Below, one piece after another: positions 22,327 to 26,519 of a stretch of 64,000 nucleotides of DNA; the first letter of the stretch is position 1; every line of letters starts with the position of its first letter. Source of the DNA: a virus (taxonomy: Duplodnaviria; Caudoviricetes); IMG/VR virus record IMGVR_UViG_3300042275_000518, positions 64,001-128,000 of that record. The stretch is one strand, 5' to 3'. Both the position numbers and the translations under genes were made by a program. The notes under the pieces were generated by a model. The model saw only the letters and a program-made list of their open reading frames with translations. It searched no databases and was not told where the DNA came from.

Positions 22327-22427
22327 AATAACCTGTTCCTTTCATTCTATTATATTAAAGTCTCATAAACTCATGATTATAATATATACATATAAAAAAA
22401 ATTAAGACCCGAAGATCTTAATTTTAA

Positions 22428-22721
22428 TTAATCTTGTTCATCCCAGAAATTCCAACTTCCCGGATTTCCAGGTTCGGCATTCTGATTGCCTTTACCTTTT
22501 CCAGTTCTTACGTAATAATTGCCTTCCCAGTATACAACATCGCCTTCTTCATAGGGTTCTTCTGGATTTGGTTCCCATACAGGAGCATAAAACCACTCAC
22601 CTATAGTTAGTGAATTAGTCATGCTATAATTGGAGATATTCCAATATGCATAAGTCGTTGTTATACCAGCAAATAATACAAAAAGATAGACAAGTAAAAA
22701 TAATATAATTTTTCTCATCAT
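22428..22721 (-). CDS. secreted protein: SipW-type signal peptide + CBM5/12-like module
   Basis: hydrophobic leader ending TYAYW; W....Y..GD.V.WEG..Y...EPG...W. Confidence 0.65.
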   Translation of the reverse strand: MMRKIILFLLVYLFVLFAGITTTYAYWNISNYSMTNSLTIGEWFYAPVWEPNPEEPYEEGDVVYWEGNYYVRTGKGKGNQNAEPGNPGSWNFWDEQD

Positions 22722-22735
22722 GTTGTTACTATTTG

Positions 22736-23236
22736 TTAGGCTATAGTAAAAACTATATCAAATATAATATCTTTATTTTTAATTGCATCATATACTGTTT
22801 GACTAGGTGGTTCAGTTAATGTGACTTTCACGCTAACTGCAATTGCTCCAGTACTTTCAAACGTATATGTTTCGTTGGTAATATTAAAATTTACTAAACT
22901 GCTATAATCTGAGCTACCACCGATTAAAACATTTTCAATATTAACTGTTAAATGTGTAGCGCCTGCTTCAAGAGCCTCATTATTTATAGAAACTTCATAA
23001 ACGTAGGTAATTGAAGTTACTTCATTACCTGTTGCTGTTTGAGTATCTGGAATTAAAATGCCAGATCCTGTTGTTGTTTCGCTTACAATTAGTTCGTCCC
23101 CTTCACCAAGAGTAATTGTTTCACTTTCTGTCTGTGTAAGCATATTCCACCAAGCATATGTTACCCCCACTGTCGATACAAATGCAAATATCATTACGAT
23201 AAATGCTGATACTACTTTTCTTTTTAATTTTTTCAT
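22736..23236 (-). CDS. secreted TasA/CalY-like protein with SipW-type signal peptide
   Basis: KK-hydrophobic-GVTYAWW leader, beta-rich body. Confidence 0.6.
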   Translation of the reverse strand: MKKLKRKVVSAFIVMIFAFVSTVGVTYAWWNMLTQTESETITLGEGDELIVSETTTGSGILIPDTQTATGNEVTSITYVYEVSINNEALEAGATHLTVNIENVLIGGSSDYSSLVNFNITNETYTFESTGAIAVSVKVTLTEPPSQTVYDAIKNKDIIFDIVFTIA

Positions 23237-23278
23237 AATCTTTTACCATCCTTTTCTAATTTTTTTTTAGAATTAAAT

Positions 23279-23341
23279 GGTAGTCTGGCGATCCCTTAGG
23301 GACCCATGACTTTGTGCCCATACATTACTGCATGTTTACCC
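23279..23341 (-). promoter_or_regulatory. c-di-GMP-I (GEMM-I) type riboswitch
   Basis: GGGUAAAC-AUGCA-GUAA-UGUAU-GGGCACAAAG-UCAUGGGUCC-CUAA-GGGAUCGCCAGACUACC fits GEMM-I architecture; 5' leader of the 22736-23236 gene. Confidence 0.7.
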
Positions 23342-23393
23342 TTACATTTTTTTCTTATTATTTAAATAATTGTTATAAATATTTTAAATATTT

Positions 23394-23467
23394 TGGAGGC
23401 CAATACCAGATTCGAACTGGTGCTCAGGGAGTTGCAGTCCCTTGCCTTACCACTTGGCTAATTGGTC
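23394..23467 (-). tRNA. tRNA-Cys(GCA)
   Basis: cloverleaf, encoded CCA. Confidence 0.95.
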
Positions 23468-24308: not shown

Positions 24309-24617
24309 CTAGAGGATTTTTGTTACTTTACCATATATATTCTTTTTAGTAACCCAACCATTAACATGTTTATGGTTATTACTAATCTGAAATTGATTAC
24401 CTTTAATTGCTGAAATCAAATGTAAATAATGGTGTCCTCTTACTTTGCACAAAACAATATCGCCCTTATTTAAAGATGAATAATCTTCAATTGGAGATAC
24501 TTCACAAACTTGACCAGATTTCAAGATTGGGGTCATAGAATTTCCAAAACCTTGAACTAAACAAGTTTCTCCATTAAGAAGTTTTTGTGCAGTAATTGCA
24601 TTTTCTTTGTCATACAT
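24309..24617 (-). CDS. S24/S26 peptidase-like protein (no membrane anchor)
   Basis: GNSMTPIL..G, GDIVL, LHLI, YGKV; likely start MYDKEN. Confidence 0.7.
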   Translation of the reverse strand: MYDKENAITAQKLLNGETCLVQGFGNSMTPILKSGQVCEVSPIEDYSSLNKGDIVLCKVRGHHYLHLISAIKGNQFQISNNHKHVNGWVTKKNIYGKVTKIL

Positions 24618-24641
24618 AATTTTATTTCCTTTCTTTAAAAA

Positions 24642-24728
24642 TGGAGCGGGGAAACGGCATTGCACCGTACTCCTTCTACATGAAGCATCTAGAATTCATG
24701 CATCTGTTCTACTCATAAAACTACCCGC
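24642..24728 (-). ncRNA. aberrant tRNA-like RNA
   Basis: GCGGG...CCCGC-UCCA end, D-like and T-like hairpins, non-canonical middle arm. Confidence 0.5.
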
Positions 24729-25293: not shown

Positions 25294-25370
25294 TGGCACG
25301 CCGAGTAGGATTCAAACCTACGACCCTCTGATTCGTAGTCAGATACTCTATTCAGCTGAGCTATCGGCGC
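25294..25370 (-). tRNA. tRNA-Arg(ACG)
   Basis: cloverleaf, CCA. Confidence 0.9.
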
Positions 25371-25884
25371 ATTTTTCTAATAATATTTTTCTATTTTTTA
25401 ATTCATGTAATCCCAATGTTATTTTTCTATGGCATATAGGGCATAAAACAATTAGATTCTCTAGACTATTGTTATCTCTATTAGAATCTATATGGTGAAC
25501 TTCCAAAATTCTATTATCTTTATCCCAGCCACAAACAGCACATTTGTGGATATATACTTTTAATGCTCTTTCTCTATATCCGTTAGAGCCATTTATATAA
25601 TTTGGATGATTTTCACCTGTTCTTATATTTAATTTATTTGTATAACTAGCTGAACAACTTTTATTACAGAATACATTTCCATGTTTTGTTTTATTTATCT
25701 GGGATTGAGTACGATATATAATCTTCCCACATGATGCACATGTTTTTTGAATTTTACCTTTATTCTTTCGACACGTATCAGAACAATAAAAATTGTAACC
25801 ATTTTTAATATATGCATTATATTTCTTTAAAGGTACATTAAATGGCTTACCACATTTCCCACATTCTACTTTTACTTTTGTCAT
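25348..25884 (-). CDS. free-standing HNH endonuclease with Zn-finger repeats
   Basis: CxxC repeats, LEVHHID.NRDNN..ENLIVLCPICH; stop lies inside tRNA-Arg. Confidence 0.85.
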   Translation of the reverse strand: MTKVKVECGKCGKPFNVPLKKYNAYIKNGYNFYCSDTCRKNKGKIQKTCASCGKIIYRTQSQINKTKHGNVFCNKSCSASYTNKLNIRTGENHPNYINGSNGYRERALKVYIHKCAVCGWDKDNRILEVHHIDSNRDNNSLENLIVLCPICHRKITLGLHELKNRKILLEKCADSSAE

Positions 25885-26033: not shown

Positions 26034-26519
26034 TTATCTTCTTCTTTTACTAAATCTATCCGCTACAGTTGATGCAGCTAAACTATCTGGTTTGATTCTA
26101 TAATCAAATCCGTAAGCTTCAACATATCCTGTAATTTCAGATATGAACGCAGAAGTCGGTCCATTTTCACCGATGTCAATATCGATAGTAATCTTAAAAT
26201 CAAGATCTCTATTGAATAAATATTTCAATAACCTTTCACCAGTTTGAATACTTTGTGTAGCTTCATGATACATCCTATCTCTTAACGTATGGAATTTCTT
26301 TTCAACTCCATTTAACCAGAAGAATATTGCGCCTTTGCCTTTTCGATATAATACAATAACGTTCGAAACGCTAGTGTTACTATATTGTTGACTATCAGTT
26401 CCAATATAAATTTTGAATGTATCTGGCGGATTATTTTCGATACTGTCTGCAATTATTTCAAACACTTTCTGTTCGCTTATACGACCATAAGTGAATGAAT
26501 TATAGACTCTCTCTTTCAT
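26034..26519 (-). CDS. RNase H-like YkuK (DUF458) family protein
   Basis: IYIGTDSQ, R...EA..S, IDIG.NG.T, IKPDS.AAS.VAD. Confidence 0.85.
   Translation of the reverse strand: MKERVYNSFTYGRISEQKVFEIIADSIENNPPDTFKIYIGTDSQQYSNTSVSNVIVLYRKGKGAIFFWLNGVEKKFHTLRDRMYHEATQSIQTGERLLKYLFNRDLDFKITIDIDIGENGPTSAFISEITGYVEAYGFDYRIKPDSLAASTVADRFSKRRR

Follow-up and report, generated by a model that had tools for sequence, protein, structure and literature searches.

A c-di-GMP-I-class aptamer upstream of two putatively exported proteins in an AR9/PBS1-like jumbo phage, with homologues in riboswitch- and SipW-linked bacterial operons

We analysed a 64,000-nucleotide stretch of viral DNA (the window), comprising bases 64001-128000 of a single 189,901-base IMG/VR virus record (IMGVR_UViG_3300042275_000518; CheckV completeness, 74%). 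The window contains a cassette of two small genes whose leader holds an aptamer of the riboswitch class c-di-GMP-I (from cyclic diguanosine monophosphate), also called GEMM-I. The 3′ tail of this aptamer has an alternative pairing with the Shine-Dalgarno (SD) region of the first gene, and this gene belongs to a protein family that, in bacteria, is mostly encoded downstream of riboswitches of the same class and next to SipW-type signal peptidases. All elements of the cassette (promoter site, aptamer and both genes) lie on the - strand.

We consider it rather probable that this cassette was captured by an AR9/PBS1-like phage lineage from bacterial operons of the type 'c-di-GMP riboswitch - fibre subunit - SipW', then rewired, and that it works as follows. 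The late RNA polymerase of the phage would start at an AACA-N6-TA site, and the leader would fold as a c-di-GMP-I aptamer. With no ligand, the ACCAUUU tail would pair with GGAUGGU and translation of gene 1 would be blocked; with c-di-GMP bound, helix P1 would retain the tail, the ribosome-binding site (RBS) would become accessible and gene 1 would be translated, with gene 2 following by coupling. The Lys-rich, hydrophobic leaders of both proteins, ending in T-Y-A|(W/Y)-W, would direct export via the host Sec pathway and cleavage by a host SipW-type peptidase. Gene 1 would provide a small β-sandwich fibre subunit with a free N-terminal donor strand, and gene 2 the strand together with a tip, cap or anchor resembling carbohydrate-binding modules (CBM) of families 5/12. 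Late in infection, and only at high host c-di-GMP (i.e., in the sessile or biofilm state), phage fibre and anchor proteins would be added to the cell surface or matrix; the surface proteins would probably be made only in sessile-state host cells.

Results

The leader contains a c-di-GMP-I class aptamer

The RF01051 covariance model places a c-di-GMP-I (GEMM-I) riboswitch aptamer at 23276..23350 (-), scoring 55.8 bits (gathering score, 35) across the entire model (1-87 of 87) and with E = 3.2 × 10−8 in the window and 1 × 10−10 locally. It is the single match in the whole 189,901-base record. An initial annotation of the window had claimed a GEMM-I-like aptamer at this place and had named the Rfam c-di-GMP-I model as the check, and the match bears out the claim. 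In an alignment of 54 aptamers (the phage aptamer and 53 bacterial ones), 12 of the 12 consensus pairs of P1b and the base of P2 are kept in the phage row, three of them as pair types that occur in no bacterial row, and 11 of the 15 consensus pairs covary overall. The P1b loop is GUAA; MAFFT misaligns the P2 pairs at the distal end, which nevertheless form in the minimum free energy (MFE) fold. A G stands directly 5′ of the first P1b pair, in the column of G20 of the Vc2 aptamer, and both the CAAAG motif (whose intercalating A we take to be A47 of the A-triplet) and the 3′ ACC are kept. Judged by its sequence, the phage RNA is a genuine member of the c-di-GMP-I class.

In Vc2 numbering, the two guanines of c-di-GMP are read by G20 and by C92, one each, sensors of cyclic GMP-AMP (cGAMP) carry A20, and wild-type G20 aptamers discriminate against cGAMP (PMC6140456). 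With its G at the G20 column, CAAAG and the 3′ ACC, the phage aptamer therefore looks like a sensor of c-di-GMP, not of cGAMP, and c-di-GMP is the ligand that it would be expected to bind. If the ligand were instead 3′3′-cGAMP, a signal of cyclic oligonucleotide-based antiphage signalling system (CBASS) defence, or if the RNA belonged to a variant class, the phage would be answering defence signalling and not the sessile state. This alternative draws on the E-value mode of the search, in which RF03167, for the c-di-GMP-I-GGC variant, was the model retained by the clan filter (51.0 bits), and on the A or C found at the G20 column in 10 of the 53 bacterial aptamers, as A20 relatives of GEMM-I bind cGAMP (PMC6140456). 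However, RF03167 scores under its own cut-off of 59 whereas RF01051 scores well over its own, and the phage RNA has G at the G20 column, the base with which aptamers discriminate against cGAMP, and CAAAG where the GGC consensus of RF03167 has CGAAG. We regard a different ligand as very improbable.

The aptamer tail pairs with the Shine-Dalgarno region

The expression platform (23245..23281, -) is a hairpin of the MFE fold in which ACCAUUU of the aptamer 3′ tail (23281-23275) pairs with GGAUGGU of the SD region (23251-23245). The complementarity of UACCAU at the 3′ end of the aptamer to AUGGUA by the RBS had already been pointed out in the initial annotation; it is real, and the MFE fold forms that hairpin (23281-23245). 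Folded without constraints, the leader consists of the two aptamer helices and the SD hairpin, with -29.2 kcal/mol (z = -4.06; 0 of 200 shuffled sequences as stable). Within the tail, CAUUU (23279-23275) doubles as the P1 3′ strand, the partner of AAAUG (23349-23345) on the 5′ side. The probability that SD bases are unpaired is at most 0.10 in the unconstrained ensemble vs. 0.47-0.99 with P1 enforced, and the P1-enforced fold has -21.4 kcal/mol, so that freeing the SD costs 7.8 kcal/mol. A terminator scan and the pairing rule given below detected no terminator between the aptamer and the gene-1 AUG and no arrangement of aptamer tail and terminator in the phage leader. Since the ligand stabilises P1 in this class, c-di-GMP would free the gene-1 RBS, and the folds are consistent with a translational ON switch.

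An AR9-type promoter site precedes the aptamer

The window encodes split multisubunit RNA polymerase β genes (phrog_2986 and phrog_3295), whose top matches among 50,697 phage records, with 38% identity, are in PBS1 and AR9, two phages of Bacillus. By these sequences, the record is that of an AR9/PBS1-like jumbo phage; its lifestyle is probably lytic, and the G+C content of the genome is 31%. The late promoters of AR9, which are used by its non-virion RNA polymerase, have the form AACA-(6N)-TA/G, and their last base is where transcription starts (PMC5312081). A candidate late promoter of this kind, AACA-ATTATT-TA, is located at 23363..23374 (-), with the A at 23363 as the predicted transcription start, 13 nt 5′ of the aptamer and 138 nt before the start codon of gene 1. 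The AACA-N6-TA site that the initial annotation had read as a promoter at 23374-23363 is thus present, and its core is identical to the AR9 late-promoter consensus.

The motif is also enriched upstream of the genes of this phage. AACA-N6-T(A/G) occurs in the sense direction within 150 nt upstream of 68 of the 271 called genes, compared to 22 occurrences in the antisense direction of the same regions and 44.5 ± 5.8 (maximum, 63) in 200 shuffles. Across the genome, its frequency peaks 20-49 nt before start codons, and the extended A/T-rich consensus is also fitted by the site at 23374. Whereas most AR9-type sites in this genome lie at that short distance, the riboswitch site is 138 nt away, which leaves space for a leader RNA. 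On the - strand upstream of the aptamer, a consensus scan found nothing resembling a sigma-70 site. The cassette is immediately preceded on its strand by tRNA genes, and no terminator separates the two; the tRNA-Cys gene ends at 23394, and read-through from it may be an alternative to transcription from the cassette's own promoter.

Bacterial homologues follow c-di-GMP-I riboswitches and adjoin SipW-type peptidases

A pattern scan of GTDB species genomes yielded two loci, one in an Acholeplasmatales metagenome-assembled genome (MAG; locus L003) and one in a 'Bacilli bacterium' MAG (L004), and in both of them c-di-GMP-I aptamers precede genes of the gene-1 family. The order in L003 is aptamer-subunit-peptidase-subunit-peptidase, where the second peptidase matches TIGR02228 with 59.6 bits (cut-off, 51.85). 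In the class of the L003 MAG, the gene-1 family was identified in 63 of 399 genomes (E ≤ 1 × 10−8), and in its order in 16 of 106; with no enrichment in the order over the class, the distribution gives no clue to the host. None of 301 genomes searched in this class yielded TasA proper (PF12389; E ≤ 1 × 10−10), and the gene-1 family may, judged by these searches, be the TasA counterpart of this class.

At least one aptamer of the c-di-GMP-I clan scores above its gathering score in 27 of the 29 best bacterial loci, none being found in L032 and L039. Every bacterial aptamer is on the strand of the family gene and upstream of it, and arrays of two to four are common. The nearest aptamer lies within 120 nt of the gene in 25 of the 27 loci, with L021 (295 nt) and L031 (436 nt) as the exceptions; for L036, the distance was taken from profile coordinates, as the called open reading frame (ORF) overran the gene start. 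A TIGR02228 (SipW/archaeal-type) peptidase is present in 31 of 31 genomes, on the same strand and at most 500 nt from a family gene in 22 of them, and within 2 kb in 27. The genomes with no such gene within 2 kb are G280, G329, G095 and G002, and at least in G329 the contig breaks there.

We called a terminator when at least 6 contiguous pairs form between the last 22 nt of an aptamer and a downstream segment that is directly followed by a U-run. By this rule, a terminator that uses the aptamer 3′ strand as its 5′ arm follows at least 20 of the 30 gene-proximal bacterial aptamers, and several of the other 10 leaders look terminator-like by eye, with bulges. Because the 5′ arm is the aptamer 3′ strand, the ligand would prevent termination, which is the ON polarity proposed for the phage. 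Both designs would set the aptamer 3′ strand in competition such that expression is ON with ligand, the output being termination in most bacteria vs. translation initiation in the phage.

Some of the bacterial aptamers upstream of family genes vary at the ligand-reading column. The 10 that lack G at the G20-equivalent column (A in 8 and C in 2) are L015:2197-2283, L017:1201-1287, L018:2209-2295, L021:176-261, L022:2229-2315, L028:1167-1254, L033:2783-2865 and three in L038. Six of these, one each in L015, L017, L018, L022 and L028 plus the outermost aptamer in L038, stand 5′-most in tandem arrays; the gene-proximal aptamer has G in L015, L017, L018, L022 and L028, and all three aptamers of L038 are non-G. 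Such mixed A/G arrays may, from their sequences, be logic gates for two ligands, one cGAMP-like and one c-di-GMP. A further array, L025:2044-2467 (-), has four tandem aptamers of the c-di-GMP-I clan before one family gene, two of which score best with the GGC variant model (60.5 bits vs. its cut-off of 59).

Gene 1 belongs to a large family with a conserved leader motif

Gene 1 (P0001; 22736..23236, -) encodes a 166-amino acid (aa) candidate exported β-sandwich protein. Its N-terminus, MKKLKRK...VGVTYAWWN, consists of a Lys-rich N-region, a hydrophobic core and TYA|WWN. For gene 2, the leader is MMRK...GITTTYAYWN, and its N-terminal segment, TYA|YWN...IGEW, is like that of gene 1; the initial annotation had correctly described both as T-Y-A-W/Y-W leaders. 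Neither protein has a match that reaches Pfam, NCBIfam or PHROG cut-offs. Word-based searches retrieved 4 relatives of gene 1 and 2 of gene 2, and a profile search of 1.84 billion representatives retrieved 516 relatives of gene 1 at E ≤ 1 × 10−3, of which 237 at E ≤ 1 × 10−10. At a length of about 165 aa, the relatives of gene 1 have in common an N-terminus rich in Lys, then a hydrophobic stretch and [TS]-[FY]-A-[YF]-W-[DN] as a motif. A28 and W30 (gene-1 numbering) are near-invariant across the family, and gene 1 retains all the near-invariant residues. Phage and bacterial proteins of the family share 30-40% identity.

The predicted cut, TYA|WW, places an aromatic residue at P2′ (the near-invariant Trp) and another at P1′. 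The cut site of TasA likewise has an aromatic P2′ and is cleaved by SipW and poorly handled by LepB (PMC10269814).

Gene 2 combines the leader segment with a CBM5/12-like module

Gene 2 (P0006; 22428..22721, -; 97 aa) consists, by ORF and profile evidence, of the leader and N-terminal segment followed by an aromatic, CBM5/12-like module. The profile of the gene-1 family matches its first 43 residues (23.4 bits, E = 5.5 × 10−6). It starts 14 nt past the gene-1 stop with no evident SD, so that coupled translation is expected, and its translation is probably coupled to that of gene 1. The C-terminal half, (E/D)GDVV(Y/F)WEGNYY...PG.PGSWNFW, is invariant in the three known members.

That this half is CBM5/12-like had been suggested from the letters, and the suggestion holds as a lead. 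Gene 2 itself has no match to Pfam PF02839 (CBM_5_12) at E ≤ 1, and its best match among Protein Data Bank (PDB) sequences is the chitin-binding domain of a chitinase (E = 0.64, not significant). Its homologue P0008 (53% identical) reaches 14.4 bits with PF02839 (cut-off, 26.2; E = 0.04), and a 435-aa bacterial protein encoded in L030 right after two family genes shares 30% identity with gene 2 along its full length (over 104 aa) and scores 33.5 bits with the same model (cut-off, 26.2). The nearest ESM Atlas cluster to gene 2 (score 0.93, 196 shared features) carries PF02839 on 69% of its members. We infer that gene 2 combines a donor strand with a glycan-binding module, i.e., that it would be a tip, cap or anchor.

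Within the CBM-like core of gene 2, 57 bases (22522-22578) match contigs of 5.5 and 6.1 kb from two wastewater runs with 5 differences, in flanks unlike the phage. By this match, another organism, possibly the host, may have the module in common with the phage at the level of DNA.

Predicted fold and kinship to TasA fibres

A first structural model of gene 1, from 5 sequences, had a predicted local distance difference test (pLDDT) score of 73, and its VIA top match was TasA (5of1_A; Z = 6.7, root-mean-square deviation (rmsd) 3.8, 118 aligned residues), tied with other sandwiches. The top Foldseek matches of this model were PliG lysozyme inhibitors (E = 7 × 10−4, template modelling (TM) score 0.31), a generic sandwich resemblance that was gone with the better model and that we do not retain. 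A second model, from 92 sequences, reached a pLDDT of 89.4 and consists of an immunoglobulin (Ig)-like sandwich (residues 46-166) preceded by conserved N-terminal residues (31-48) that are unpaired. Compared to structure representatives, its top Z was 7.9, none being at or above 8, with many pilus subunits and chaperones among the matches; the TasA fibre structure 8aur_A ranks 19 (Z = 6.3, rmsd 2.8, 107 aligned residues). The profile of the 92 members retrieved no TasA chain from the PDB sequences at E ≤ 10. A trimer prediction for the mature gene-1 protein scored 0.01 against a mark of 0.42, a value that carries no weight either way.

Fibres of the TasA superfamily have an N-terminal donor strand, an aromatic residue at mature position 2 and an adjacent TIGR02228 peptidase, and in AbpX-type fibres minor, tip or anchor proteins share the donor strand (bioRxiv 10.64898/2026.01.04.697558). 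Of these traits, the gene-1 family has the aromatic mature position 2 and the TIGR02228 neighbour, and gene 2 supplies a strand-sharing accessory protein. On the basis of the models, kinship of gene 1 to TasA is plausible, and we propose that gene 1 encodes a donor-strand fibre subunit of the TasA-superfamily kind. The CoCoPALM pilus systems, which are linked to McrBC (PMC11090510), were weighed as a frame for the cassette and not used.

The same switch and the same export could serve the opposite aim, where gene 2, with its donor strand and glycan-binding module, or gene 1 would interfere with the c-di-GMP-induced fibres of the host by capping or mis-anchoring them, or would mask a surface receptor, leading to a looser matrix that lets progeny out or to superinfection exclusion. 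Gene 2 is little beyond the shared N-terminal segment and a binding module, which is the shape of a chain terminator or adaptor, and TapA acts on TasA through strand complementation (PMC10151520); moreover, the phage clade has diverged from the bacterial subunits to the identity given above, and expression from a late promoter shortly precedes lysis. Gene 1, however, keeps the full subunit fold together with all the near-invariant residues, as a functional subunit would, and building and blocking are not distinguishable in silico. We consider such interference unlikely, and prefer the capture of a fibre cassette that would add material to the host surface or matrix.

Relatives of the cassette in phages, bacteria and metagenomes

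In a quick maximum-likelihood tree with midpoint root, built from rows of at least 100 bits with duplicate loci dropped, the two phage proteins group with 7 metagenome sequences in a single clade (support 97 in the Shimodaira-Hasegawa-like approximate likelihood ratio test, SH-aLRT), which is sister to a bacterial clade and lies inside the bacterial diversity. The cassette seems to have been taken from the biofilm-fibre operons of hosts. Nothing near-identical to the DNA of the 947-base cassette was found in 399 genomes, where it matched only short stretches that are AT-rich or consist of Lys codons. In IMG/VR, gene-1 alignment identified no relatives, and an exact-pattern scan for the bacterial-type aptamer core gave 0 matches; among the 50,697 phage records, gene 1 had no tblastn match, and blastn of the region retrieved tRNA genes only. 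The search of metagenome contigs returned a single related locus, L001:1-1481, on a phage-like contig that carries both genes (66% identity) with three tRNA genes downstream, in a gene order unlike that of the window. The cassette stretch itself is present in wastewater metagenome runs, and contigs in four runs are identical to the window across the riboswitch.

The phage record contains no GGDEF or EAL gene. Together with the lack of a SipW gene described below, this means that the phage would rely on the host for both signal and processing.

Neighbouring features

The two-gene unit ends in an intrinsic-terminator-like hairpin (22394..22425, -) with a UUCG loop and a U8 run (-12.3 kcal/mol), which the consensus scan overlooked because it has only 2 G-C pairs. 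We had entertained the idea that translational control was adopted since the phage polymerase ignores terminators; it was dropped, as a canonical terminator-like hairpin ends the cassette.

The RNA genes of the window comprise 24 tRNA genes and one tmRNA, along with group I introns. Among the tRNA genes is a 118-aa ORF (24309-24665, -) with a GNSMTP motif that is barely over the cut-off of Pfam Peptidase_S24 (23.9 vs. 23.3 bits); as it has no membrane segment, it is no substitute for SipW. An HNH endonuclease ORF (25348-25884, -; phrog_1271, E = 1 × 10−24) overlaps the 5′ end of a tRNA-Arg gene (25294-25370, -) by about 23 bases, and an RNase H-like protein (26034-26519, -; PF04308, E = 1 × 10−41) is encoded inside the tRNA region.

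Discussion

The initial annotation had read the cassette as a means by which the phage senses host c-di-GMP and adds surface or matrix proteins. The aptamer and the riboswitch and SipW links of the bacterial homologues speak for this reading; in it, the binding of c-di-GMP, the ON polarity, the TasA-like role and the gain for the phage are what we infer.

Several observations weigh against the proposal set out at the beginning. With regard to processing, no SipW gene (TIGR02228, E ≤ 1) was found in the phage record, which is 74% complete. TIGR04088, the model of the SipW-cognate signal, gives 11.1 bits for gene 2 against a cut-off of 19 (E = 0.35) and no match for gene 1; it touches 3 of 92 family members (best E = 0.0022), and TIGR04089 and TIGR04090 touch one each, weakly. 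After the conserved Trp, moreover, the phage clade has N vs. the D of most bacterial members. The profile search for a SipW-class signal that the initial annotation had suggested was thus negative on the phage proteins themselves, whereas the TIGR02228 neighbours of the bacterial homologues provide the connection to SipW. Given the scores under the cut-off, we treat the leaders as working like SipW-cognate signals, not as members of that class. With regard to the fold, the matches are to generic Ig-like sandwiches, among which TasA comes 19th with the better model, within 1.6 Z of the top, and there is no membership in PF12389 (TasA/Peptidase_M73), as gene 1 has no Pfam match and only 1 of the 92 members matches this model (E = 0.0036). 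With regard to control, the 85 nt of upstream sequence available in L001 contain no aptamer, and in one wastewater run a diverged contig differs in sequence just upstream of the start codon; the riboswitch is therefore no fixed partner of the phage gene pair.

The aptamer-less upstream stretch of L001 also bears on the notion that the cassette is a passenger, i.e., neutral host DNA that is read through from the upstream tRNA genes and in which the RBS hairpin is incidental. The tRNA genes that immediately precede the cassette on its strand, unseparated from it by a terminator, would allow this, the record has only one riboswitch, and riboswitches are rare in phages (PMC5473149). On the other hand, the phage platform differs from the terminator type of at least 20 of the 30 bacterial relatives and yet follows the same logic, a good phage late-promoter site stands 13 nt before the aptamer, and the contigs from four wastewater runs are identical across the riboswitch. 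The consensus pairs of the aptamer have all been kept via compensatory changes, and protein identity to the bacterial members is no higher than 30-40%, observations that speak for long residence under selection. We judge a passenger origin to be quite improbable, and favour a captured cassette that has been rewired for use by the phage.

A bolder version of that proposal, which we put forward tentatively and hold to be doubtful, is that a probably lytic jumbo phage with its own polymerases reads, late in infection, the biofilm or planktonic state of its host by a riboswitch whose output was rebuilt from terminator to RBS clamp, and accordingly deploys a kit of two parts, a fibre subunit and a glycan-binding cap or anchor, that plugs into the SipW-processed donor-strand fibres of the host and remodels the matrix.

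Phage-borne riboswitches of this class have been described before. In the cited passages of a 2017 census, riboswitches are rare in phage genomes, and phage c-di-GMP-I riboswitches are found only in two C. difficile prophages (PMC5473149). These are Cdi1_4 and Cdi1_5, in phiCD119-like Clostridium difficile prophages (Sudarsan 2008 as cited in PMC5473149; PMC3649979). They resemble the present case in the Rfam class, in being phage-borne and in preceding a small phage accessory gene, as far as those sources describe them. In the same accounts, however, they belong to temperate prophages, are transcribed by the host polymerase and form a lysis-module switch, whereas the phage described here is a jumbo phage with its own multisubunit polymerases, a late-promoter motif, a platform that would sequester the SD and exported fibre-like proteins as the predicted products.

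The bacterial aptamer-subunit-SipW operons share with the cassette a homologous subunit, the leader motif, the riboswitch class directly upstream and the expected ON polarity, and some of them also hold a leader-bearing CBM5/12 protein. These operons, in small-genome relatives of the Acholeplasmatales MAG, mostly use terminators, often have 2 to 4 tandem aptamers and have an adjacent peptidase gene, whereas in the phage a single aptamer with predicted translational control follows a phage promoter, and no such peptidase was found in the record. The tapA-sipW-tasA operon of B. subtilis and the TasA superfamily (TasA, AbpA, AbpX and Tafi) are similar in the small secreted β-sandwich, the aromatic P2′, the conserved N-terminal strand, the TIGR02228 neighbour (here, of the bacterial homologues) and the strand-sharing accessory proteins. 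They differ in that the present family has no Pfam or NCBIfam membership, its structural Z of 6.3-6.7 is not distinctive, and its polymerisation is only predicted.

In searches of open-access papers and bioRxiv, we found no description of this arrangement. The riboswitch class is known; its setting is new with respect to phage type, promoter and output platform. With a different type of virus, a phage promoter and an altered platform, the cassette is an example from nature of host-sensor re-engineering by a virus. The cassette also draws attention to a large, unannotated, c-di-GMP-controlled and SipW-linked family of secreted proteins in small-genome, Acholeplasma-like bacteria that apparently lack TasA proper. 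If the proposed mechanism is true, a leader of 150 nt and two small genes would be a compact, testable system for phage sensing of the host state and for addition to, or sabotage of, the matrix, and a virus would be directly reading the biofilm or planktonic state of its host through RNA.

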